Shown piece after piece: positions 15,785-64,000 of a stretch of DNA of 64,000 bases. Within the stretch, counting starts at the first letter, position 1. Each line of letters begins with the position of its first letter. The translations under genes and the position numbers were made by a program. The notes below the pieces were generated by a model. That model did not search any database. It saw nothing but the letters and a program-made list of their open reading frames with translations, and was not told where the DNA came from. This stretch comes from Escherichia coli (GTDB taxonomy: Bacteria; Pseudomonadota; Gammaproteobacteria; Enterobacterales; Enterobacteriaceae). The DNA lies in the NCBI RefSeq assembly GCF_003019035.1, contig NZ_CP027447.1; one strand, written 5' to 3'.

Positions 15785-17068
15785 TTAAAGACTTCTGGAA
15801 GGTTGCGCAGCTCTGACAACATGCGGTTGATCTTCCGCAGCGTCTTCCAGCGCACTTAAATCACGGTCTTTCACTTCTGGCATTTTCAGCGCAGAAATTA
15901 AACCAATCACTGAATATGCCATGATCATAATTGCGATCGGATACCAGGATTCCGTCATGGTGCAGAAAATACCCGCCAGGATAGGACCAAAACCGGAAGC
16001 GATAAGACCACCAATTTCTTTAGAAATGGCCATCCGGGTAAAGCGGTTTTTACAGCCGAACATTTCTGCCATGGTAATGTTTTCCAGAGCAAATAATCCA
16101 AGCACCGCACAGTTATGAATCACAATCAGTGCAACCATAATGGTGCTCGGGGCATAGCTTTTATCTACGATGATAGAAAGCATTGGCCATGCCAGCACAA
16201 TCGCAGAGGTATTCATAATAATATACGGGATCCGGCGACCAATTTTATCGGATAACCAACCAAGGAACGGAATGGTCATAAAGCCGAGAATCGAACTGAT
16301 CATCAATGCATCTGTTGGAATTGCTTTGTTAAACAATAACGTCTGCACTAAATAGCCTGCAAGGAAAGTCTGAATTAAACCTGAGTTACCAGCCTGACCA
16401 AAACGCAGCCCTGTTGCCAGCCAGAAGGATTTGCTCTGGAACATGCTACCAGCAGGTGCAGGTTTTGCTGTAGGTTGGTTGCTGTCGTTAACCTTCTCAA
16501 AGACCGGGCTTTCTTTCAGATTCATACGCAACCAGATAGCAAAGACCATCACGACAACGCTCGCCAGGAACGGTATACGCCATCCCCACGCCAACAGTTC
16601 CTCTTTACTGAGAATGAAGAACATAAAGGCCCAGATTGCCGTTGCGCTCAAGGTTCCGCAGTTAGTCCCCATAGCAACAAATGAGGAGATAATTCCGCGC
16701 TTACCTTTTGGCGCATATTCCGCCAGCATCGTACCGGCACCGGAAATTTCCGCGCCTGCCCCCAGCCCCTGAATAATACGCAGCGTCACCAGCAAAATTG
16801 GCGCAAACACACCAATTTGTGCATAGGTCGGCAGCACACCAATTAAGGTGGTACAGATCCCCATCATGGTGATGGTAATAAAGAGCACTTTTTTACGCCC
16901 TATTCTGTCGCCCATTTTGCCGAAAATAAATGCTCCGACAATACGTGCCACATAACCTGCACCATAGGTTCCCATTGCCAGAATTAACGCCATTGCCGTT
17001 GACGATTCAGGAAAAAATATTTCATGAAAAACTAACGCTGCGCCGAGCGAATATAACTGGAAATCCAT
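15785..17068 (-). pseudogene. ydfJ: MFS (metabolite:H+ symporter family) transporter YdfJ, 5'-truncated at the prophage junction
   Basis: 427 aa ORF begins MDFQLYSLGAALVFHEIFFP, which aligns to the conserved (E)WFDFxxYG segment at the start of TM1 in ProP/KgtP-type transporters, so roughly 25-45 N-terminal residues are missing; an in-frame stop lies two codons upstream and prophage DNA follows. Confidence 0.75.
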
Positions 17069-17671
17069 AATTCACAGGTGTTTTTTCCCATCCTGTGGTT
17101 TCCTTGGCGTTTTCTAGGTTTTTTCAGATAGTTGCATTTTTTAAAAAGCATCCTAAGTTCGATCTCAGTGTCTATCTGGGGCCTATTTCTGTCCCATATA
17201 TGCCCCAAAAAAACTCCCCAACAGATAAGTAGTTTTTTCATGGATTTATGCGTAAAATCAAGAACGGCTGGAAATCATTCAATACTCACACTATCGAAAA
17301 ATTTACCAGCCAACCGCAGCACGTTCTTGCATAAGGCGTGTCTGCGGTTTTTCAACTATTCAGATACATCACTCCCATCACATTCATTCCTCCGCATCAA
17401 AGGCATATAGGCTATATCACCTTGATATTTTTCTTTTTCAGATAAAAACTGTTATCTATGTATACTTTTAAACCCAATCCGTGTAGAGTCTCTGCATAAG
17501 ATAGTTTGCAGTTGCCGCTTCAGCTTGCGCCATAAACCGCCTGATTTTTGCTGCCACCTGTTAGCATTCCTGTATACCTGAAACGACAATGTTTATCTAC
17601 GAACTTTAAGAACACCCAAGATAAAAATTGTCAACTATATCATATATAACACATTACTAATTCGAGGCTAT

Positions 17672-17785
17672 ATGAACAGCATACTGATAATCACTTCTCT
17701 CCTTATCATATTCAGCATTTTTAGTCATGCCCTAATAAAATTAGGGATTGGCATATCCAATAACCCAGACAAAACCGATGTATAA
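17672..17785 (+). CDS. Hypothetical 37 aa hydrophobic peptide upstream of ydfK
   Basis: cgaggctat-ATG with good SD spacing; [37 protein letters not shown]; single predicted TM helix; AT-rich context just inside the prophage end. Confidence 0.35.
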
Positions 17786-18403: not shown

Positions 18404-18994
18404 ATGTCTCGAATTTTTGCTTACTGTCGGATATCAACGCTGGATCAGACCATCGAAAATCAACGCCGGGAAATCGAAAGTGCAGGTTTTAAAATCAAAC
18501 CTCAGCAAATAATCGAAGAACACATTAGCGGCTCAGCAGCAACCAGTGAGCGTCCTGGTTTTAACCGGTTGCTTGCTCGCCTGAAATGTGGTGATCAATT
18601 GATTGTGACAAAACTGGATCGCCTTGGTTGTAATGCAATGGATATCAGGAAAACAGTGGAACAACTGACCGAAACAGGTATCAGAGTGCATTGCTTAGCA
18701 TTGGGGGGCATTGACCTGACCAGTCCAACAGGAAAAATGATGATGCACGTAATTTCAGCAGTCGCTGAATTTGAACGAGACCTTTTACTTGAACGCACTC
18801 ATTCCGGGATAGTAAGAGCCCGCGGCGCAGGGAAACGTTTTGGTCGACCACCTGTGTTAAATGAAGAACAGAAACAGGTGGTATTCGAACGAATTAAGTC
18901 AGGTGTAAGTATAAGTGCCATTGCCCGGGAATTCAAAACCTCGCGGCAAACCATTTTAAGAGCCAAAGCAAAACTTCAGACACCTGATATATAA
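18404..18994 (+). CDS. pinQ: Serine recombinase / DNA invertase Pin (Gin/Hin/Cin family)
   Basis: 196 aa; N-terminal catalytic serine motif YCRISTLDQ and C-terminal HTH; matches recalled PinQ/PinE. Confidence 0.9.
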
Positions 18995-19094: not shown

Positions 19095-19210
19095 CGGCAG
19101 TGCTGGCCATTCAATATCCTGTGCAGTTGACGTATCAACACGGTTCAGCAATACCCGATACTTTTTCCATGCTTCCAGCAACGAGGTTTCTTCCTCCGTT
19201 GCATATACAG
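19095..19210 (-). pseudogene. 3' remnant of a tail fibre assembly gene (Tfa C-terminal domain only)
   Basis: Minus-strand frame encodes ...[36 protein letters not shown]-stop, close to the conserved Tfa C-terminus (lambda Tfa ...[33 protein letters not shown]), but the upstream part of the ORF ([12 protein letters not shown]...) is unrelated and overlaps the next gene. Confidence 0.6.
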
Positions 19211-19221
19211 CCCACCTTTTT

Positions 19222-19515
19222 TCACCCACGATTAACCAACAGCCAGACCAGCAGACACGCCACCACCGGCACAGCAAAATCCATCAGGCTTGCCACATCC
19301 CACGCGCGCGGATCAAAACCGCCCCACCACGGCATATTCATTCGCTTGCCATGCCCGAACATTTCAATCCAGCGATATTCTGCCTGGGTATGTTCACGCG
19401 CAATGAAGAACGTACAACCGGCTATCGCTCCGTAAGCCCAGTTTCCGGTAAAAAGACCAACCAGTATCTGCGCAGCCACAGCACAAAGTGCATGAAGTAA
19501 GGGGCTTATATCCAT
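19222..19515 (-). CDS. Hypothetical small membrane protein (about three TM segments) downstream of the tail fibre gene
   Basis: 97 aa; [39 protein letters not shown]... and C-terminal [13 protein letters not shown] hydrophobic segments; follows stf and the 92 aa ORF on the same strand with short spacers. Confidence 0.5.
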
Positions 19516-19527
19516 TATTTCCTCCTT

Positions 19528-19806
19528 TCAGCTCCATTCCCGAAGCGGTGTTTCCAGCTCCACGACATAATCAGAGAATACAGAAACATCAAACAAGTCA
19601 TCAAGAATGCGAATGTTGACAAAATAACCGTTATTCCGGATACAGACAGGTTCTCCCTCTTCAGTTACCCCTGTTTCTGTGTAGGTGAAACCAATTTCAT
19701 CGACTAACAGTTTATTCTGGAGGTCTTCATCTTCCTCCCAGTCAAGAGATGACAGGAAGGATTTAAACTCTCTGTTACCAGGAAATTTCAAAGTTAAATC
19801 TTTCAT
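19528..19806 (-). CDS. Hypothetical acidic small protein, translationally coupled to the tail fibre gene (possible fibre chaperone)
   Basis: 92 aa; start overlaps the stf stop (ATGA overlap at 19803-19806); acidic, no Tfa-like motifs. Confidence 0.5.
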   Translation of the reverse strand: MKDLTLKFPGNREFKSFLSSLDWEEDEDLQNKLLVDEIGFTYTETGVTEEGEPVCIRNNGYFVNIRILDDLFDVSVFSDYVVELETPLREWS

Positions 19807-21833
19807 ACTGCCTCCTTGATTTGCCTGTCATTTAATTCTTTAAACCAGACTCTGAAATTTCTGATGTGTCCAAACAAATGACGCGTTCCTGCTGCGGTCT
19901 GCCCACCAAACCGGTACGATGTTGCTGTAACTCCAAATATTTTACCATTAAGGTTTGTTGTATAATTACCATTGCATATTGCATTTACTGATAAATCAGA
20001 TTTAGCTCTCACACCCACAATGAACCTTTCTCCATCTGAGGAAATTTGTGGCTGAACCATTCCTACGTTGGCGCTTATCTTTCCTGTTGAAACAAACCCC
20101 AGCGATAAATAATTATCATCAATACTGTGCCCTCCAACATCAAATATCCTTGGCGCAACATTGGGCGGTGTACTCCAGTTCCTCCTTACTTCGCACAATA
20201 CTGTAAAAGGCCGTGTTGACAGGTTATTCGCCGAGGGGATAGTAACCACATCACTTGCGCGTGTTGTTGGCATTGTAGTTACAATAAATGACGATGCCGT
20301 ATTGCCCAGTTCAATTTGCGGCGTCGTCATGGTTAATGTTGAGTCATCATAGAATGGCTCATTACTTATTTTATTTGTCATATAAAAAGCACAGTTAACG
20401 GTATCAATGTCCGTATTAGCTGTATAAGTGGCCTCATAGTAGGTCCACTCGCCCTGTTGTTCAGCTTTGGCTGTTATAAGGGATGTATTACCGCTTACTG
20501 TTGCGATCCGGGTATCCAGATCAAGATAAGAGTCAGCAGAGAATGTATCTGTTCCACCAATAATAACTGAAACTCTTAACCTGCATCGTGCTTTAGCGCC
20601 TTTAACCCGGCACGAAAAAGTGAAACATTCACCACTTGCCAGCGGGAATCTGTCTGCTGCAACCACACCATGCACAGTATAGCCACCTGTTGTTCCCACT
20701 ATACTTTCCGTGGGTGTCACCGTGGCATAATTGAACCCCTGTTTATCAGTGCCAAATGTTTTATTCAGTGCGGAATGAACAGTCCATGAGTCTGGTTTAT
20801 TTGAGTTCCTCAGATAATTTGTCCTCTGTCCTTCAATCAATAAGCCATCGCGCTCAAATCGCGGTTCGTCAACTTCAGCAAGCTTGAGTTGGCCGGACTT
20901 ATTAATATACGTTGCTGTTGAAGCACGTTTAAACTTAACAATCTTGTCGCCTGGCATTGTTATTTCATCGTCACCAATAACAATCTTTTTATAAGATGGC
21001 GAAAAACCCGTAATCATATCCAGCGAATCGTTAAACGGTATCCACACATCAGGCAGCGGCGGCACTATATTCGCATAGGGCTCTGCAGTCACTTCCGCTG
21101 CGGCTTCTGCGCGGTCTGCCGCCTTTTCAGCTCGTGTCGCTGCCGACAGAGCCTCATCCTTTTTCTGCCCGGCCTTTGTTGCGTCTGCTGCGGCCTCCCG
21201 CGCTTTTGTGGTGGCGACTCCGGCATTTTCAGCGGCTGACTCTGCATTACGGCGGGAAGCCTCTTCACTGTCTGCGGAGGCTTCTTCTGACGCACGGGCA
21301 TTTGTCTCTGAACGTTCTGCCGCTGTTGCTGCGTTTTGTGCGGCTGTTTTTGAAGAAGCTGCCGCTTTCGCGCTGTTACCTGCATTCGTCTCTGATGTTT
21401 TCGCCGCGTTCCTGGACGATGCCGCTGCTGTTTCTGATTTCTTTGCTGCCGCTGCGCTCTGAGAGGCGGCTTCAGCGTTGCGTGCTGCTTCTTCCACCAT
21501 TGCCTCAAAACGACGCAATGCCTCCGGCATGACATCATCTTCCGTCATGGCACCGAGAAAATCATTCAGCGTACCAGGTCTGGAACCTTCATAGACGGTA
21601 ATGGTTCCGGCATGTGAAGGCGGAAAACCTTCAACCAGCAGGGTGACGCTGTACTGGCCATACTCGACATCCATGCTGTAACGCCCGGCTTCATCCGGAT
21701 TTTCAGAGGCTACCGTGTTCACCAGTACCGTGGTGCTGTTACGCTTTGCCTTCAGTTGAATAGTGCAGTTCTGTATTGGTTTTCCCGCACCATCTTTCAG
21801 CACACCTGAGATTTTTACTGCTGCCATATCCAC
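19803..21833 (-). CDS. stf: Side tail fibre protein (Stf-like): lambda-type N-terminal anchor and Ala-rich shaft, divergent C-terminal receptor-binding region
   Basis: 676 aa; N-terminus M(DM)AAVKISGVLKDGAGKPIQNCTIQLKA... resembles lambda Stf; long Ala/Ser/Glu-rich repeat region (aa 120-240); C-terminal ~430 aa unlike what I recall for lambda Stf. Confidence 0.8.
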   Translation of the reverse strand: MDMAAVKISGVLKDGAGKPIQNCTIQLKAKRNSTTVLVNTVASENPDEAGRYSMDVEYGQYSVTLLVEGFPPSHAGTITVYEGSRPGTLNDFLGAMTEDDVMPEALRRFEAMVEEAARNAEAASQSAAAAKKSETAAASSRNAAKTSETNAGNSAKAAASSKTAAQNAATAAERSETNARASEEASADSEEASRRNAESAAENAGVATTKAREAAADATKAGQKKDEALSAATRAEKAADRAEAAAEVTAEPYANIVPPLPDVWIPFNDSLDMITGFSPSYKKIVIGDDEITMPGDKIVKFKRASTATYINKSGQLKLAEVDEPRFERDGLLIEGQRTNYLRNSNKPDSWTVHSALNKTFGTDKQGFNYATVTPTESIVGTTGGYTVHGVVAADRFPLASGECFTFSCRVKGAKARCRLRVSVIIGGTDTFSADSYLDLDTRIATVSGNTSLITAKAEQQGEWTYYEATYTANTDIDTVNCAFYMTNKISNEPFYDDSTLTMTTPQIELGNTASSFIVTTMPTTRASDVVTIPSANNLSTRPFTVLCEVRRNWSTPPNVAPRIFDVGGHSIDDNYLSLGFVSTGKISANVGMVQPQISSDGERFIVGVRAKSDLSVNAICNGNYTTNLNGKIFGVTATSYRFGGQTAAGTRHLFGHIRNFRVWFKELNDRQIKEAV

Positions 21834-21835
21834 TC

Positions 21836-21866
21836 CACAAAAAAGCCCGCCTGAACCGGCGGGCTG
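21836..21866 (-). terminator. Rho-independent terminator downstream of lom
   Basis: Minus strand agcccgccggttcaggcgggct hairpin followed by a T-run. Confidence 0.5.
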
Positions 21867-21891
21867 TCATAACACTGTGTTACCTGGCTAA

Positions 21892-22491
21892 TCAGAATTT
21901 ATAACCGACACCCACGATGAAACCGTCAGTGCGCCAGTCACCACTGCCGGAACCTTCATAAGCAAGGTCAATGGCCACGGATTCGGTCGGGTTAAACTGC
22001 ACGCCAGCCCCCCACGCCAGAGACGTGTTGCTGTGGCGACCGTCATCACTTCCGGTCAGCACATCGTGCGTTTTCCCCTTGTTGTCAGTTACGCGGAGAT
22101 AATCCCCGGAGAAGGTCGACACACGGCTGTAAGCCATACCCGCCATCGCATACGCGCTGAACCATTCATTCACGCGCACAGACGGCCCCGCCATCACGCT
22201 GAACCAGCGGTTACGCACGGAATCTTCATGCCAGCGGGTATCGCTGTAATGCGTTTTTTGCTCATCTTTGGCATTGGCATAACTGAATGACGTCACCAGC
22301 CCCAGCGTGTCCGTAAACTCATAACGGTATTTCACGTTAATCCCGTTCAGATCATCGCTGCCGGGAACGTTCGTCGAGGCATGAAGATACCCCGCGCTCA
22401 GCGTGGACTGATGTTCAGACGCCCATGCAGGCGCACCGGATACGGCCAGACAAATGGCTACGGACAAAATGGCGGCATAAAGTTTACGCAT
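21892..22491 (-). CDS. lom: Outer membrane protein Lom (Ail/Lom/PagC family)
   Basis: 199 aa with signal peptide; beta-barrel ending GVGYKF as in lambda Lom. Confidence 0.9.
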   Translation of the reverse strand: MRKLYAAILSVAICLAVSGAPAWASEHQSTLSAGYLHASTNVPGSDDLNGINVKYRYEFTDTLGLVTSFSYANAKDEQKTHYSDTRWHEDSVRNRWFSVMAGPSVRVNEWFSAYAMAGMAYSRVSTFSGDYLRVTDNKGKTHDVLTGSDDGRHSNTSLAWGAGVQFNPTESVAIDLAYEGSGSGDWRTDGFIVGVGYKF

Positions 22492-22557
22492 AATTACCTC
22501 TCGCTTTTCTGCAATAAAAAAGGCGTCATTTCTGACGCCCGTTATGGGTTATAAAAT

Positions 22558-25500
22558 TCAGCTGATACTGATGCCTGCGGTGGCTTTCTTCATCACCACA
22601 ACCAGCAAATCGCTGATACTTGCTGTGGGATACCAGTCATTTACCAGCCATGCTGACACCGAAAACTCCAGCGTCATGTGGCCGTGACCAGCTGGCATAT
22701 CAATAACGCCACTGTAAATCAGCGTATTATCCAGCGCGGTACGGTTATAAATTTCAGCACCGTTTTTCCGCACTATCAGACGGCATGAGGAGTAAATATC
22801 AGTATGCTCTCTCTCATGTTTAGCACCGCTGAATGCCACCGCCGGAATAACAATCTGCCGGTCAAACGGCTGATCGTCATAAATCCTGACGGTAATGGTC
22901 CCTGATGGCCACCGCTCCGGTGCCCGGGAGTCCCGCGGGAAAGCCTTACCCACTGTTTTGACAATATCGCCTTCAATCTGGTTGGCTGACAGTTTCCCTT
23001 TAATCTGACAGTTCTCATTTATCGTAACGTTGTTGAGCGTCCCGGCGTTCGCATTCACACTGCCACTGATATCCGCATTTTTCGCCGTCAGTCGCCCGTC
23101 CGGTGTCAGGGAAAATGCCGGAGGATTACCGCCGCTGGTAATGGTGGGAGCCGTCAGATATTTCAGGAACACGTCATTCATGAATATCTGATCGCCCTGA
23201 CCAACAAACATCGGCTTTGTGTTGCCATTCGCAGGATTAATCATCGCAATCCTGTCTGCCGCCAGCAGCACCTGACTCTGCATGCCGTCGGGGGTGTTCT
23301 CAATACCGGCACCGATACCCGCAATATAAAGGCGTCCGTCCTGCATCTGCTGCAGCTTCACTGCCCACATGCTGTTCAGGTTATTATTTGTATCAACCTG
23401 AACCTTCTGTATCTGCTGGATCGCTGCACTCTGGTCTTCCAGTTTCTTATTGACGGTCTGTGTTATTTCATTGCTGACATCCGTTATGGACGTCCTGATT
23501 TCAGTCAGGTCAGGCGCAAGCTGACCGTTATCAATCTGCGTCCACAGCTCCTGAGCCAGATGGGTTTTCCCTATCTCGCCTTTGAAAAAATCCAGATAGC
23601 CGGATGCATCATCACTCGGCTGACCAACAGCCTCCACGAATGCCGATTTGCCAACGGTGTTCACACTGCGAACATAAAAATAATAATCATGGCCCGGTTT
23701 GATATTGATACTGGCGGCTATCCAGTACAGCGCCGTACCAAGATAACGCGCGCTGGTTTCAACCTGCCTGATATCAGCAATCCGTTTTTCCGAGAACCAG
23801 AACTCAAACTGTACCGTCGGATCATAAACCGCAAGATGCGGCGTGGCGGTTATCTGAAAATAGCCCGGCGTCAGCTCAATCCGCGACGGCGCTGCCGGTG
23901 CGGCAATCCGGAACGATACCGACGCCGGATCGCCCTGCTGCCCCCACGCATTTACTGCCCGGACTGTCAGCCTGTAGTTCCCCAGAGCCAGTTGTGTGAA
24001 GCGGTAAGTGGTTTCCGTCGTCCGGGCCGTGCTGACCAGCCGCTCACTGCCGTCATCCGCTGCCACGGTCAGGCGAAGCAGGAAGCTCACGCCCTTCACC
24101 ACCTTCGGTGTGTCCCATCGCGCCAGCACCTGATATTCCCCGCTGTCTGCAGTGACTTCTGCGGTCAGGTGCTGCACTGCTGGCGGCGTGACACCATTCA
24201 CCGTGCCGCTCTGGTCACCGTCAAAGTGCGCCCCGTTATCCACGATGGCTTCTTTCTCCGGTACATGCTGCACGGCAGTGATGGCATACGTACCGTCATC
24301 GTTCTCACGGATACTCACACAGCGGAACAGACGCTGGCGCAGCGTCGGCAGCTTCAGCCCCCATACGCTGTATTCAGCAACACCGTCAGGAACACGGCTC
24401 ACTTTTACCTTCACGCCGTCGGTGACGGACTGAACCTCCACGCTGACCGGATTGCCACTTCCGTCAACCAGGCTTATCAGCGTGGTACCGGAGGATGGCA
24501 GCGTGATTTCACGGTCGAGCGTCAGCGTCCGGGTCTGGCTGTTCACCGCCAGCACGCGACCACCGATGCTGATACCGGCATAGTCATCATCACAGATTTC
24601 AATGACATCGCCCGGTACATGGCGAAGCCCTTCTGCGCCCACGCTGAAGTCCACGGTCTGCGTTTCCAGCAGTTCCGTTTTAATCAGCCACAGCCCGGCG
24701 CGGTGCGCCTGCCCCCGGCTGGTACAGCCAAAAGCATCCATCTTCGTGACGTTACGACCGTAACGGGCAATGGCCTGCGTGTCCTCCACAAGCTCTGTTG
24801 CCGTTTCCCAGCCGTTATCCGGGTCAATCCAGTTCACTTCAACGGCATTATGGCGGTCCTTCAGGGCGCTGAAGCTGTAGCGGAACGGCGCGCCATCATC
24901 CGGCATCACCACATTACTGCGGTTATAGGTCCACACCTTATCCGACGGTCGGTCCTGCACGAACGTCAGCGTCTGCCCGTTCCATACCGGCATACAGCGC
25001 ATCGCCGAGCAGAAATCACTGAGCACATCCCACGCCTTGCGCTGTGTGGTCAGGTACGCATTACAGGTAATGCGCGGCTCCGTGCCGCCAAAGCCGTCCG
25101 GCACCGACTGGTCGCAGTACTGGCCGATGACATACAGCGCCCATTTATCCACATCCGCCGCACCAAGACGTTTCCCCATGCCGTAGCGCGGATGGGTCAG
25201 CATATCCCACAGACACCAGGCCATGTTGTTGCTGTATGCTGGCTTAAACGTTCCGTCCCAGATACCGCTGTATTGCCGCGTCAGCGGGTTATAGTTCGAC
25301 GGCACCTGCAGAATACGCCCGCGCAGATGATAATTACGGCTCACCTGCTGGCTGCCGAACTGCTCCGAGTCCACCTGCACGCCGACCAGTGCCGTGTTCG
25401 GGTAGCACTGTTTCACATCGATGATTTCGGTGTATGACGACCAGAGCGTTTTGTTCTGCAGCTGGTCTGTAGTGCTGTCCGGCGTCATCCTGCGCATCCG

Positions 25501-58843: not shown

Positions 58844-59183
58844 TAGCTAATCAACAAAGCTAAGGTTAGTAATTAAGGAGTTCTCCACGGGTGAGGTGGA
58901 GTGCGTGCGCCGGACACGGGTGCGCATCCGGAACTGACAGTTTACTGAAAGGATATTTCCCTGAAAAGTCAGACCATAACGCGAAAGCGCACGGCGAGGT
59001 AGCTGGTTCATAGATAGCCTGTCGTTAAATTTTCGTCGACCGTGCGCTTCCGGTTGTGGCAACCCGCGAAATGGCGCGGCGGTAAGTATGGCGGGGTTAT
59101 TCCTTCCCCGTTGAGGACACCGGGTTGTCAGGTTGACCATACGCTTAAGTGACAACCCCGCTGCAACGCCCTCTGTTATCAAT

Positions 59184-59236
59184 TTTCTGGTGACGTTTGG
59201 CGGTATCAGTTTTACTCCGTGACTGCTCTGCCGCCC
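59184..59236 (+). ncRNA. dicF: DicF small RNA (ftsZ-targeting antisense sRNA)
   Basis: tttctggtgacgtttggcggtatcagttttactccgtgactgctctgccgccc followed by ttttt matches the 53-nt DicF sequence I recall. Confidence 0.85.
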
Positions 59237-59410
59237 TTTTTAAAGTGAATTTTGTGATGTGGTGAATGCGGCTGAGCGCACGCGGAACAGTTAAAACCAA
59301 AAACAGTGTTATGGGTGGATTCTCTGTATCCGGCGTTAATTGTTAACTGGTTAACGTCACCTGGAGGCACCAGGCACTGCATCACAAAATTCATTGTTGA
59401 GGACGCGATA

Positions 59411-59599
59411 ATGAAAACGTTATTACCAAACGTTAATACGTCTGAAGGTTGTTTTGAAATTGGTGTCACTATCAGTAACCCAGTATTTACTGAAGATGCC
59501 ATTAACAAGAGAAAACAAGAACGGGAGCTATTAAATAAAATATGCATTGTTTCAATGCTGGCTCGTTTACGTCTGATGCCAAAAGGATGTGCACAATGA
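59411..59599 (+). CDS. dicB: Cell division inhibitor DicB
   Basis: ORF 59306..59599; from MKTLLPNVNTSEGCFEIGVTISNP the 62 aa protein matches recalled DicB. Confidence 0.9.
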   Translation: MKTLLPNVNTSEGCFEIGVTISNPVFTEDAINKRKQERELLNKICIVSMLARLRLMPKGCAQ

Positions 59600-59787
59600 A
59601 TTCAGCATTTGTGCTTGTTCTGACAGTTTTTCTTGTTTCCGGAGAGCCAGTTGATATTGCAGTCAGTGTTCACAGGACAATGCAGGAGTGTATGACTGCA
59701 GCAACCGAACAGAAAATTCCCGGTAACTGTTACCCGGTCGATAAAGTTATTCACCAGGATAATATCGAAATCCCGGCAGGTCTTTAA
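59596..59787 (+). CDS. ydfD: YdfD (small membrane protein of the dicB operon)
   Basis: ORF 59542..59787; start MNSAFVLVLTVFLVSGEP overlaps the dicB stop (ATGA); 63 aa. Confidence 0.8.
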   Translation: MNSAFVLVLTVFLVSGEPVDIAVSVHRTMQECMTAATEQKIPGNCYPVDKVIHQDNIEIPAGL

Positions 59788-59879
59788 AACAGTTCCGTAA
59801 TAAATATCCGGTTTCATTCTTATATGCCAGCAATGGCAGGGATTTGTTCATCCTTAAATCTGTCATGAGGTTAAAACAA

Positions 59880-62351
59880 ATGAGTAAAGTCTTTATTTGC
59901 GCCGCTATTCCTGACGAACTGGCAACAAGGGAAGAAGGCGCTGTGGCTGTAGCCACAGCCATTGAAGCTGGCGACGAACGCCGTGCTCGAGCAAAATTTC
60001 ACTGGCAATTCCTGGAACATTATCCGGCTGCTCAGGACTGCGCTTATAAATTTATTGTCTGCGAGGATAAACCTGGCATACCCCGCCCTGCCCTCGATTC
60101 ATGGGATGCTGAATATATGCAGGAAAACCGCTGGGATGAGGAGTCTGCTTCTTTTGTCCCGGTTGAGACTGAATCCGATCCGATGAACGTCACTTTTGAC
60201 AAGCTGGCCCCTGAAGTACAGAACGCTGTCATGGTTAAGTTCGACACATGTGAAAACATCACCGTTGATATGGTTATTAGCGCACAGGAATTGTTGCAGG
60301 AAGACATGGCAACATTCGACGGACATATCGTTGAAGCGTTGATGAAAATGCCAGAAGTTAACGCCATGTATCCGGAGCTTAAGTTGCACGCCATTGGGTG
60401 GGTTAAGCATAAATGTATTCCTGGTGCTAAATGGCCCGAAATTCAGGCAGAGATGCGCATCTGGAAAAAACGTCGCGAAGGTGAACGCAAGGAAACCGGA
60501 AAATACACGTCTGTTGTTGATCTCGCCCGCGCCAGAGCCAATCAACAGTACACTGAAAATTCAACAGGAAAAATCAGCCCGGTCATTGCTGCCATTCATC
60601 GCGAATACAAGCAGACATGGAAAACACTGGATGACGAACTGGCCTACGCTCTCTGGCCTAGTGATGTGGATGCCGGAAACATTGACGGCAGCATCCATCG
60701 CTGGGCAAAAAAAGAAGTTATCGACAACGACCGCGAAGACTGGAAGCGTATCTCGGCATCAATGCGCAAACAGCCTGATGCCCTTCGCTACGACCGCCAA
60801 ACTATTTTTGGCCTTGTCCGTGAGCGTCCGATCGACATTCACAAAGATCCCGTAGCACTGAACAAATATATCTGCGAATACCTGACGACAAAGGGCGTGT
60901 TTGAGAATGAAGAAACAGACCTGGGCACTGTTGATGTTCTCCAGTCATCAGAAACACAAACTGATGCAGTGGAAACTGAGGTATCTGATATCCCAAAAAA
61001 TGAAACCGCGCCGGAAGCTGAACCATCTGTAGAGCGTGAGGGGCCGTTCTATTTCCTCTTCGCAGATAAGGACGGAGAAAAATACGGTCGCGCAAACAAA
61101 CTCTCTGGTCTGGATAAGGCACTGGCTGCTGGCGCCACTGAAATCACAAAAGAAGAATATTTTGCCCGAAAAAATGGCACATACACGGGCTTACCGCAAA
61201 ATGTAGATACCGCTGAAGATTCAGAACAACCAGAGCCGATAAAAGTTACCGCTGACGAAGTAAACAAAATTATGCAGGCAGCCAATATCAGCCAGCCTGA
61301 CGCCGATAAGTTGCTTGCTGCATCACGTGGTGAATTTGTTGAAGGGATTAGTGACCCGAATGATCCGAAATGGGTTAAGGGGCTCCAGACCCGCGATTCT
61401 GTGAACCAGAACCAGCATGAATCGGAACGGAACTACCAAAAAGCGGAACAAAACAGTCCAAATGCGTTACAAAACGAGCCAGAAACGAAACAGCCTGAAC
61501 CAGTAGCGCAACAGGAAGTGGAAAAAGTCTGCACCGCCTGCGGTCAGACCGGCGGCGGCAACTGCCCTGATTGTGGCGCGGTGATGGGCGACGCAACATA
61601 CCAAGAAACATTCGATGAAGAGTATCAGGTTGAAGTTCAGGAAGATGATCCGGAGGAAATGGAAGGCGCTGAACATCCACACAAGGAGAACACTGGCGGC
61701 AATCAGCATCACAATAGCGATAATGAAACTGGCGAGACGGCAGATCACCCAATTAAGGTGAACGGTCATCACGAAATCACATCCACCAGCAGGACGTGTG
61801 ACCATCTAATGATCGACCTTGAAACCATGGGAAAAAATCCTGATGCCCCGATCATCTCAATAGGTGCAATATTTTTCGATCCGCAAACCGGAGATATGGG
61901 ACCGGAATTTAGTAAGACTATCGATCTGGAAACTGCTGGCGGAGTCATTGATCGGGACACCATTAAATGGTGGCTTAAGCAATCACGCGAAGCGCAATCT
62001 GCCATTATGACCGATGAAATCCCGTTAGATGATGCACTGTTACAATTGCGAGAATTTATCGACGAAAACTCCGGTGAATTTTTTGTTCAGGTTTGGGGAA
62101 ATGGAGCCAACTTCGACAACACGATTTTGCGCCGTTCATACGAACGGCAGGGGATCCCCTGCCCGTGGCGTTACTACAACGATCGCGATGTACGCACAAT
62201 CGTTGAGCTGGGGAAAGCCATAGACTTCGATGCCAGAACGGCTATTCCATTCGAAGGTGAGCGCCATAATGCACTTGATGACGCCCGTTACCAGGCAAAA
62301 TACGTTTCAGTTATCTGGCAAAAACTGATCCCGAGTCAGGCTGATTCTTAA
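59880..62351 (+). CDS. ydfE: YdfE-like large early protein with central zinc ribbon and C-terminal DEDDh 3'-5' exonuclease domain
   Basis: ORF 59844..62351; N-terminus MSKVFICAAIPDELATREEG as recalled for K-12 YdfE; CTACGQTGGGNCPDCG zinc ribbon; C-terminal MIDLETMG / WGNGANFDNTIL / HNALDDARY fit DnaQ-like Exo I, II and III motifs. Confidence 0.7.
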   Translation: MSKVFICAAIPDELATREEGAVAVATAIEAGDERRARAKFHWQFLEHYPAAQDCAYKFIVCEDKPGIPRPALDSWDAEYMQENRWDEESASFVPVETESDPMNVTFDKLAPEVQNAVMVKFDTCENITVDMVISAQELLQEDMATFDGHIVEALMKMPEVNAMYPELKLHAIGWVKHKCIPGAKWPEIQAEMRIWKKRREGERKETGKYTSVVDLARARANQQYTENSTGKISPVIAAIHREYKQTWKTLDDELAYALWPSDVDAGNIDGSIHRWAKKEVIDNDREDWKRISASMRKQPDALRYDRQTIFGLVRERPIDIHKDPVALNKYICEYLTTKGVFENEETDLGTVDVLQSSETQTDAVETEVSDIPKNETAPEAEPSVEREGPFYFLFADKDGEKYGRANKLSGLDKALAAGATEITKEEYFARKNGTYTGLPQNVDTAEDSEQPEPIKVTADEVNKIMQAANISQPDADKLLAASRGEFVEGISDPNDPKWVKGLQTRDSVNQNQHESERNYQKAEQNSPNALQNEPETKQPEPVAQQEVEKVCTACGQTGGGNCPDCGAVMGDATYQETFDEEYQVEVQEDDPEEMEGAEHPHKENTGGNQHHNSDNETGETADHPIKVNGHHEITSTSRTCDHLMIDLETMGKNPDAPIISIGAIFFDPQTGDMGPEFSKTIDLETAGGVIDRDTIKWWLKQSREAQSAIMTDEIPLDDALLQLREFIDENSGEFFVQVWGNGANFDNTILRRSYERQGIPCPWRYYNDRDVRTIVELGKAIDFDARTAIPFEGERHNALDDARYQAKYVSVIWQKLIPSQADS

Positions 62352-62423
62352 TGTTCAACTGTCGCCGGTTGTGACTGGTATTCTGCAACCGGCGCTCGTC
62401 TGATGTAAGAGATAAAGAAATCG

Positions 62424-62675
62424 ATGAGCGAAGTAATCATGATTGTCTCTCCCGGCAAATGGGTATCCGAAGAGCAGTTAATTGCGCTGAAAGGAATAAA
62501 AAAAGGTACGTTAAAAAAGGCCCGGGAAAAATCGTTTATGGAAGGAAGGGAATATAAGCATGTCGCTCATGACGGTATGCCATGGGATAACAGTCCATGC
62601 TTTTACAACCTGGAAGAAATTGATCGCTGGATTGAGCGCCAGGCATCAGCGAGACCAAGACGTCATCTTACTTGA
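62424..62675 (+). CDS. Putative excisionase / small DNA-binding protein
   Basis: 83 aa basic protein immediately upstream of the integrase gene; no strong motif. Confidence 0.4.
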   Translation: MSEVIMIVSPGKWVSEEQLIALKGIKKGTLKKAREKSFMEGREYKHVAHDGMPWDNSPCFYNLEEIDRWIERQASARPRRHLT

Positions 62676-62694
62676 CTAAAAGCCACACTAACTA

Positions 62695-63990
62695 ATGAGA
62701 GAAGTTGAAATGAAATATCCGACAGGCGTGGAAAACCATGGAGGGAAATTACGTATCTGGTTTGTTTATAAAGACGTAAGAGTCAGGGAAAATCTGGGGG
62801 TTCCTGACACAGCAAAAAACAGGCGCGTTGCAGGTGAACTACGCTCCTCTGTTTGTTACGCAATAAAAACTGGTGTTTTCGACTATGCAAAACAGTTTCC
62901 CTCCTCACGCTATCTGGAAAAATTTGGTGAGGCCCGACAAGATTTAACCATAAAAGAACTGGCTGAAAAATTTCTGGCACTGAAAGAAACTGAAGTCGCC
63001 AAAACATCACTCAACACATACCGTGCCGTCATCAAAAATATCCTGAGCATAATCGGTGAAAAAAATCTTGCCTCATCGATTAATAAAGAAAAATTACTGG
63101 AGGTTCGTAAAGAGTTACTGACTGGATACCAGATCCCCAAAAGTAACTATATTGTTACACAACCAGGGAGATCGGCTGTAACTGTAAATAATTACATGAC
63201 AAATCTTAACGCCGTGTTCCAGTTTGGTGTTGATAACGGTTACCTGGCAGATAATCCGTTTAAGGGGATCTCGCCATTAAAGGAATCAAGAACCATTCCG
63301 GATCCTCTTTCGCGGGAAGAATTTATCCGTCTTATCGATGCGTGCAGAAATCAGCAAGCAAAAAATTTATGGTGTGTTTCTGTTTATACTGGAGTTCGCC
63401 CTGGTGAGCTGTGTGCACTTGGATGGGAGGACATAGATCTGAAAAATGGAACAATGATGATCAGGAGAAATTTAGCAAAAGACCGTTTCACGGTACCAAA
63501 AACACAGGCGGGAACCAATCGGGTCATTCATCTTATTAAGCCAGCAATCGACGCTCTCCGGAGTCAGATGACATTAACGAGACTGAGCAAAGAGCATATC
63601 ATTGATGTTCACCTCAGAGAGTATGGCAGAACAGAAAAACAAAAATGCACCTTTGTTTTTCAACCTGAAGTGTCAGCGAGAGTAAAAAATTATGGTGACC
63701 ATTTTACCGTTGACTCAATAAGGCAGATGTGGGACGCAGCGATAAAACGTGCCGGACTCCGCCATCGAAAATCATATCAGTCGAGACATACTTATGCCTG
63801 CTGGTCGCTGACAGCTGGTGCTAACCCGGCATTTATAGCAAACCAGATGGGCCATGCAGATGCGCAAATGGTATTTCAGGTATACGGAAAATGGATGTCT
63901 GAAAACAATAATGCACAGGTAGCTTTGTTAAATACACAGTTAAGCGAGTTTGCCCCAACCATGCCCCATAACGAAGCAATGAAAAATTAA
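62695..63990 (+). CDS. Tyrosine site-specific integrase (lambda Int family)
   Basis: 431 aa; C-terminal catalytic region with the conserved arginine, the HxxR box and the tyrosine nucleophile (RHTYACWSLTAGANPAFIANQMGHADAQMVFQVYGKWM); true start may be the internal MKYPTGVENHGG. Confidence 0.85.
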   Translation: MREVEMKYPTGVENHGGKLRIWFVYKDVRVRENLGVPDTAKNRRVAGELRSSVCYAIKTGVFDYAKQFPSSRYLEKFGEARQDLTIKELAEKFLALKETEVAKTSLNTYRAVIKNILSIIGEKNLASSINKEKLLEVRKELLTGYQIPKSNYIVTQPGRSAVTVNNYMTNLNAVFQFGVDNGYLADNPFKGISPLKESRTIPDPLSREEFIRLIDACRNQQAKNLWCVSVYTGVRPGELCALGWEDIDLKNGTMMIRRNLAKDRFTVPKTQAGTNRVIHLIKPAIDALRSQMTLTRLSKEHIIDVHLREYGRTEKQKCTFVFQPEVSARVKNYGDHFTVDSIRQMWDAAIKRAGLRHRKSYQSRHTYACWSLTAGANPAFIANQMGHADAQMVFQVYGKWMSENNNAQVALLNTQLSEFAPTMPHNEAMKN

Positions 63991-64000
63991 TTTAATATTT

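Follow-up and report, generated by a model that had tools for sequence, protein, structure and literature searches.

The xis-int recombination module of a probably complete Qin/mEp460-type prophage of Escherichia coli and the reconstruction of its attachment site

We report an analysis of the integrase end of a prophage from Escherichia coli, as it appears in a stretch of 64,000 nucleotides from contig NZ_CP027447.1 (assembly GCF_003019035.1), which we refer to as the window. Two co-oriented genes on the plus strand occupy the right-hand edge of the window: xis (62424-62675), coding for an 83-aa excisionase, or recombination directionality factor, of the PF06806/DUF1233 family and, with xis lying directly to its 5' side, int (62710-63990), coding for a tyrosine integrase of 426 aa whose N-terminus forms an arm-binding domain. 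Host DNA makes up the left part of the window and includes, on the minus strand, ydfI and the 427-codon 3' part of ydfJ (15785-17068), the host target gene truncated by the prophage, which is an open reading frame here and is annotated as ydfJ in relatives and in K-12. Intact ydfJ has 455 codons in prophage-free genomes, and the integration of Qin at the 5' end of this gene is reported to remove 28 codons and the promoter (PMC6379469). Exactly at the boundary between ydfJ and phage DNA is an 11-bp att core, GAAATCCATAA (17060-17070), which marks the integrase-distal junction and, read as its reverse complement, gives the truncated ydfJ its ATG; beyond it runs the integrase-distal arm of attP (17071-17300), the equivalent of the lambda P arm, which in free phages is contiguous with the arm on the int side. 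From core to core, with the right end extrapolated, the prophage measures approximately 46,968 bp (~47 kb).

The int stop codon, TAA, lies at 63988-63990 and leaves 10 nt to the end of the window at 64000, as an earlier reading made from the sequence alone had noted. The first ATG of the frame, at 62695, would give a protein of 431 aa, though this start is less likely than the one at 62710: RefSeq relatives begin the gene 15 nt past 62695, at the MKYPTG codon that corresponds to 62710 in the window, this start aligns with that of IntR from prophage Rac, and a purine-rich GAGAAG precedes 62710 and nothing similar precedes 62695. The protein matches PF12167 (Arm-DNA-bind_2; E 3.8e-22; 78.5 bits, cut-off 22; residues 9-72 in the numbering of the 431-aa protein), PF00589 (E 3.9e-18; 66.2 bits, cut-off 27.1) and PHROG 1, 'integrase' (E 3e-75). 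Judged by these profile matches, int is a real gene and its product a tyrosine integrase with an N-terminal arm-binding domain, probably of the heterobivalent lambda type. It shares 43% identity with Rac IntR over its full length and aligns to the structures of Tn1549 Int (6emy), an alignment that places the catalytic residues at R230, K264, R359, H382 and Y392, all of which are present. The slot of the first catalytic histidine is taken by Y356 and, since tyrosine is also found there in IntR and in free-phage integrases, the comparison identifies this substitution as a trait of the subfamily.

The closest relatives of the module are found in phage genome records. The xis-int region of mEp460_ev081, HannyBb, Tritos and PhiR42_1, all of which have an uninterrupted attP, is 99.1-99.9% identical to that of the window, and the integrase differs from those of free phages by 1-5 amino acids (one residue from PhiR42_1 and five from mEp460_ev081). 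PhiR42_1 is furthermore 99% identical to positions 30045-64000 of the window, while its tail-fibre region (approximately 19200-23000 in the window) is divergent. Such elements are abundant in E. coli chromosomes also: a megablast search with positions 62300-64000 found at least 80% of the module in 2301 of 5426 complete E. coli genomes, in many of them at 99.9% identity. The element is a very common and already described type of prophage, and its recombination module is already known.

K-12 carries a decayed version of it. The Qin prophage of K-12 has the same integration site, core and right-junction sequence, its intQ pseudogene matches positions 62831-64000 of the window at 99.8% identity, and its ydfE remnant, the 5' part of an exonuclease gene, is 100% identical to positions 59001-60646. 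The equivalent of 60647-62830 (2.2 kb), comprising the 3' part of the exonuclease gene, the whole of xis and ~120 nt from the start of int, has been lost from K-12, where IS2E takes its place, and Qin is annotated there at 20.5 kb, compared with the prophage of ~47 kb with an intact module in the window. We hold with high confidence that the region under study is the recombination module of a complete lambdoid prophage of the Qin/mEp460 type, inserted in ydfJ. By comparison with these genomes, the prophage is a complete and probably active relative of the decayed Qin of K-12; mEp460_ev081, for its part, comes from infant faeces and is reported to be a functional temperate phage (PMC10448788).

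The strongest competing reading is that the module is present but dead, grounded like the Qin of K-12 by a change in Int or by defects elsewhere, such that xis and int are relics. The integrase gene is damaged in K-12 Qin and in many Qin-like prophages (PMC6379469), residue 68 of the integrase is tyrosine here and asparagine in all five of the relatives examined (the free-phage records included), and the matching prophage region of relatives has an annotated ISNCY transposase. Residue 68, however, is not conserved between Int and IntR, and for this reason no effect is expected of the N68Y change; moreover PhiR42_1, deposited as a complete phage genome, also has a transposase and a 'mobile element protein' in its annotation. 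Both frames are full length, every catalytic residue of the integrase is in place, Xis does not differ from that of free phages, the integrase is a single residue away from that of PhiR42_1, and the length and gene order of the prophage match those of complete phages. We therefore regard a dead module as unlikely and retain the reading of an intact, probably active one.

The sequence-only reading had assigned the 83-aa frame upstream of int as an excisionase by position and nothing else; the assignment stands, but its basis is broader than this. The protein matches Pfam PF06806 ('putative excisionase') with an E value of 1.6e-31 (108.1 bits against a cut-off of 22) over positions 1-69 of the 70 in the profile, PHROG 539 ('excisionase') with 1.4e-35 and, more distantly, the solved structure of a 'putative excisionase', PDB 2KVV, with 0.0039. 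No other Pfam family was met at E <= 0.01, lambda Xis and the other named excisionase families included, and a search of the NCBIfam profiles gave no match. The Xis proteins of the free phages mEp460_ev081, HannyBb and PhiR42_1 are 100% identical to that of the window. XisR of K-12 (YdaQ, from prophage Rac) belongs to PF06806 too (74.2 bits) and shares 26% identity with the protein of the window. Deletion of XisR lowers the excision of Rac approximately 10-fold and its overexpression raises excision approximately 10-fold, whilst the purified protein shifted an att-junction fragment in an EMSA and bound the integrase-distal junction of Rac (PMC4632033). On the strength of this family membership, xis is a real gene and not a chance open reading frame and, because PF06806 also holds the experimentally tested XisR, homology as well as position identifies its product as an excisionase.

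A different function for the 83-aa protein has to be weighed here, namely that it acts mainly as a transcriptional regulator, in the manner of the dual-function Xis/Cox proteins, rather than as a dedicated directionality factor. Small DNA-binding excisionases of other phages do also regulate, the excisionase of Pf4 being an example (PMC7379572), and an AlphaFold model of Xis built from the single sequence is uninformative (mean pLDDT 46.5). The strong membership of PF06806 nevertheless argues for a directionality factor, as do the roughly 10-fold shifts in excision and the junction binding seen with XisR, and the position of the gene immediately 5' of int, an order that is kept in Rac and in every relative examined. 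A regulatory side role is in any case compatible with that of an excisionase, and we consider it very unlikely that regulation is the main function of the protein; we refer to it as Xis throughout.

The left junction of the prophage can be read within the window. It is a clean 3' end of ydfJ, identical to the boundary of K-12 Qin. Around the core there is an imperfect repeat of 18/19 bp (17057-17074), whose shared form, CT(G/T)GAAATCCATAA(A)TTCA, agrees with the att sequence of 18 or 19 bp that has been reported for prophages in ydfJ (PMC8112680). A direct repeat proposed earlier at 17069-17120 was rejected, as the DNA that starts at 17071 is unique and belongs to the phage arm; a repeat shared with the left junction does occur in near-identical genomes, as had been anticipated, with its true extent at 17060-17070 (17057-17074 in the imperfect form). 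There is no second copy of GAAATCCATAA in the 64-kb window and, for this reason, the integrase-side attachment site is placed beyond 64000, in agreement with the earlier suggestion that it lies outside the window.

We infer the right junction from other genomes, since the window stops 28 nt before the predicted second core. The closest of the 5426 complete E. coli genomes are 99.8-99.9% identical, and the junction was read directly in two of them, cq9 (99.9% over 62300-64000) and MEC2025-PR (99.9% over the left junction). After int, both continue with ...TATCAAATAGTTAACACGCATGACTCTT-GAAATCCATAA-ATTCAAGCGC..., followed by the start of ydfJ and by rspB, which lies 187 nt past the integrase. In the relatives, the spacer that follows the last bases of the window reads ...ATCAAATAGTTAACACGCATGACTCTT GAAATCCATAA ATTCAAGCGCAGTGCC... 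and leads into the start of ydfJ on the reverse strand. The second copy of the core in near-identical genomes is found 38 nt past the int stop codon, and the 5' fragment of ydfJ in the relatives consists of 28 codons (MTIEKHERSTKDLVKAAVSGWLGTALEF) plus 3 codons in the core (MDF), with rspB beyond. Both of the elements that had been expected downstream of the integrase, the 5' fragment of ydfJ and a shared core, are thus present in near-identical genomes, the former as 28 codons next to rspB. By extrapolation, the second core is predicted at 64028-64038, the ATG of ydfJ at 64118-64120 and the stop codon of rspB at 64178, and the sequence past 64000 is predicted to be ATCAAATAGTT(A/G)ACACG(C/T)ATGACTCTT-GAAATCCATAA-ATTCAAGCGCAGTGCC...; a simple ydfJ 5' junction would read TATCAAATAGTTAACACGCATGACTCTTGAAATCCATAAATTCAAGCGCAG... 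and on through the ydfJ ATG.

This junction is widespread. A 601-nt query spanning the 3' end of int, the junction, the 5' end of ydfJ and the 3' end of rspB is covered to at least 80% in 2702 of the 5426 complete E. coli genomes; all of the full-length matches sampled are annotated with an integrase and with rspB and, in prophage-free genomes, the match to the right-junction query begins within ~3 nt of the core. That something other than a simple ydfJ 5' fragment follows 64000, whether a tandem second prophage or the result of inversion between prophages, is a prospect raised by the tandem prophage clusters and inversions known at ydfJ in O157:H7 and other STEC (PMC8112680) and by the H103 integrase (~91% identical over the 3' end), which has different DNA past the core, but with a clean ydfJ 3' end at the left junction, a single phage-sized unit of ~47 kb between the ends, the ydfJ 5' end and rspB in cq9, MEC2025-PR and K-12 alike, and the same junction common to 2702 genomes, we give it hardly any credence.

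The substrates and products of recombination at the simple ydfJ junction were assembled from the two ends. An artificial empty site, made of the left flank, one core and the right flank, was matched to at least 80% in 2008 E. coli genomes; among the matches listed, 12 of 12 cover this query in one piece at 100%, and there ydfJ (455 codons) adjoins rspB. TCM3e1, which was compared base by base, has the exact join of left flank, core and right flank. The attP reconstruction, in which the int-side arm and the core are followed by the window sequence starting at 17071, matches continuous DNA of mEp460_ev081 and HannyBb over 811 nt at 99.1-99.5% identity, and PhiR42_1 has the same attP. The predicted products of excision are accordingly worded as attB = GCGAATATAACTGGAAATCCATAAATTCAAGCGC and a circular attP = GACTCTTGAAATCCATAATTCACAGG, and near-identical genomes and free phages together allow the attachment site missing from the window to be reconstructed with confidence.

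The arms of the reconstructed attP share a short motif. The 64-kb window contains four copies of TGCCCCA, three of which lie in the attP arms, at 63951, 63962 and 17201. Two of them form a tandem pair on the plus strand with an 11-bp period (63951-63957 and 63962-63968), in the last codons of int, and are candidate integrase-proximal arm-type sites, while TGTCCCA (17190-17196) and TGCCCCA (17201-17207), 11 nt apart, are candidate arm-type sites on the distal arm. Relative to the core the motifs lie at -77 and -66 on the one side and at +120 and +131 on the other. The attP of Rac, reconstructed from K-12 with its 26-bp core, has TGCCCC at -65, -54, +108, +119 and +138, in DNA that, from the core to +240, does not otherwise align with that of the window; the Poisson P for the layout is ~1e-5 in the window and ~2e-9 in Rac. 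Generic searches of attP for k-mers and repeats did not by themselves rise above shuffled sequence, and the arm motif is convincing only through Rac and the distant phages described below.

The same arrangement extends to more remote integrases. We examined five distant free phages whose Int proteins are 57-61% identical to that of the window, namely CharmingMan, Klebsiella RCIP0098, SaltyDalty, the 933W-like phi367 and Yersinia YP3. In all five, a tandem TGCCCCA pair lies within the final 20-65 nt of int, and four of them have a second pair or a triplet 150-200 nt past the int stop codon. Because the pair of Rac lies past the stop codon of its integrase gene, this comparison indicates that the tandem pair is conserved at the level of the DNA and not only as a consequence of the protein tail. 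The consensus for IHF, WATCAANNNNTTR, has one perfect match per attP in both the window and Rac, in each case on the stretch that separates the core from the integrase-proximal pair; here the match is TATCAAATAGTTA at -28 (extrapolated 64000-64012), that of Rac is at -15, and in the whole 64-kb window the consensus has one match. The tandem TGCCCCA repeats are candidate arm-type sites in a lambda-like attP layout. Extended to the whole PF12167 group, IntQ, IntR and the 933W-type and wrbA-type integrases included, the claim that TGCCCCA repeats with an 11-bp period serve as arm-type sites, with the proximal pair lying in most members in the last codons of int and encoding a tail of the form ...AP-x-(M/L/V)-P-Q/H, seems to us somewhat better than an even proposition.

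Other elements were sought around the module. A sib-like retroregulatory hairpin beyond attP is unsupported, the 221-nt RNA folding with a z of -1.33 and 24 of 200 shuffles folding as well, and the terminator-like matches just beyond attP are at chance level. The inverted repeat CACAGG...CCTGTG at 17074-17098 was considered as a structured element and found to be unsupported. For a promoter of the lambda PI type, the CII motif TTGC-N6-TTGC is absent from xis and its count across the window is below chance, and a scan for sigma-70-like promoters around xis, int and attP gave matches at or below shuffle expectation.

Rac, which integrates in ttcA, can be compared with the module in its organisation. 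Its Xis and Int belong to the two Pfam families found here and their genes keep this order, with Int 43% and Xis only 26% identical, and its attP is laid out like that of the window, with tandem TGCCCC near the int stop codon, the IHF consensus by the core and two to three TGCCCC 108-138 nt into the other arm; beyond +240 its distal arm is 98% identical to that of the window. Its core, in contrast, is one of 26 bp, TTGTTCAGGTTGTATTGTTCTTTCTT, in a different target gene, and its integrase-proximal arm sites lie past the stop codon where those of the window lie inside the int coding sequence.

Lambda provides the wider framework. It has a heterobivalent tyrosine integrase, an int-adjacent arm bearing H' and P'1-3, more arm sites on the far arm, and a small xis gene that, within the leftward early operon, follows exo and precedes int; there Int spans the core and the arm sites, the arms are bent by IHF, and Xis turns the reaction towards excision. 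The module described here resembles it in its probably heterobivalent integrase, in the tandem candidate arm sites and IHF consensus of the int-adjacent arm, in its candidate far-arm sites and in the place of xis, which likewise follows an exonuclease gene and precedes int, but differs in the family of its arm-binding domain (PF12167), in that of its Xis (PF06806) and in its arm motif and core.

On this model, Int would act as a heterobivalent recombinase whose C-terminal domain would cut and rejoin DNA within the core GAAATCCATAA, whilst its N-terminal domain would bind arm-type sites on both arms of attP, probably the TGCCCCA repeats, with IHF bending the integrase-proximal arm at the predicted TATCAAATAGTTA site by analogy with lambda. 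Integration into codons 28-31 of ydfJ gave the integrase-distal junction at 17060-17070 and, as predicted, an integrase-proximal junction 28-38 nt past the end of the window. Since XisR bound the integrase-distal junction of Rac, Xis would be expected, by analogy, to bind that part of the integrase-distal arm which runs from the core to the candidate arm sites (17071-17190) and to steer Int towards excision.

The analysis fixes the limits of the prophage, with one core at 17060-17070 and the predicted second at 64028-64038, and replaces a position-based annotation of xis with one founded on homology; beyond correct annotation, this has little significance. What the strain carries is the intact ancestor, probably still competent for excision, of the module that has decayed in the Qin of K-12. 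The family-wide attP architecture of TGCCCCA repeats and an IHF consensus is the only item that is, mildly, new: no prior description of the motif or of this architecture was found in the searchable literature, outside which most subscription journals lie. If it is true, one stretch of DNA serves both as coding sequence of int and as a binding site of the integrase itself. This layout, which is common to Rac and to the integrases of Shiga-toxin phages, could help to predict att arms and also the cross-reactivity among the many prophages with integrases of this family that pathogenic E. coli harbours.

Both arms of the attP of this prophage, a Qin-type element of about 47 kb lying in ydfJ, carry TGCCCCA in tandem, repeated every 11 bp, at window 63951-63968 on the integrase-proximal arm and at 17190-17207 on the integrase-distal arm. 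These repeats are likely arm-type Int sites, and they are also kept in Rac of K-12 and in five free phages, 933W-type and others, whose integrases are 57-61% identical to this one. The pair on the integrase-proximal arm lies, in most of these elements, partly within the final codons of int, giving an Int tail that reads ...AP-x-(M/L/V)-P-Q/H. Between the core and the integrase-proximal arm sites lies a single, perfect IHF consensus (TATCAAATAGTTA), which straddles the window end (window 64000 and the next 12 nt) and was read in the sequence of a near-identical relative (L001, 5701-5713). Rac attP likewise has one IHF consensus in the equivalent place, at -15, and elsewhere in the 64-kb window there is just one match to this consensus.

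At window 17058-17068, on the minus strand, the truncated, 427-codon ydfJ takes its ATG from the core, read there as its reverse complement (TTATGGATTTC). At the other junction (L001, 5691-5821) integration has made a 36-codon hybrid ORF, MTIEK...EFMDFKSHAC, which is ynfP in the K-12 annotation.

Codon 68 of int (window 62911-62913) encodes Tyr, where all five sequences compared, those of the near-identical E. coli genomes cq9 and MEC2025-PR and of the free phages mEp460_ev081, HannyBb and PhiR42_1, have Asn; it is the sole difference between this Int and the integrases of PhiR42_1 and cq9. The K-12 Qin region (L003, 3845-4550) lacks exactly window 60647-62830, beside IS2E, a segment that contains the 3' part of the exonuclease gene, the whole of xis and int up to about its nt 120, and it is because of this loss that K-12 has ydfE and intQ as pseudogenes and no Qin xis. 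The large ORF upstream of xis (window 59844-62351) matches the family model of RecE (exonuclease VIII) over the middle of that model, and at its C-terminus it has an Rv2179c-like 3'-5' exoribonuclease domain (PF16473, E 2.5e-67); in RefSeq relatives the gene is annotated at 2472 nt (823 codons), shorter than from the TTG start given by the ORF finder. The 72-nt gap between this gene and xis holds a GC-rich 8-bp inverted repeat (GCCGGTTG...CAACCGGC; 14-nt loop; window 62364-62393), after which there is no T-run.

PhiR42_1 is 99% identical over window 30045-64000, whereas the tail-fibre region (19202-22996) is unaligned or ~91% identical, a divergence typical of host-range mosaicism. A Pin-type serine invertase gene (18404-18994) adjoins this region. 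On the integrase-distal arm the right end of Rac (L010) is 98% identical over window ~17310-17770, starting ~240 nt past the core and running toward the ynfT/ynaM and ydfK/ynaE genes. The two differ in their cores and in the 240 nt nearest the core. This stretch of the arm from ~240 nt onward is a mosaic module common to both prophages, adjoining different att specificities.
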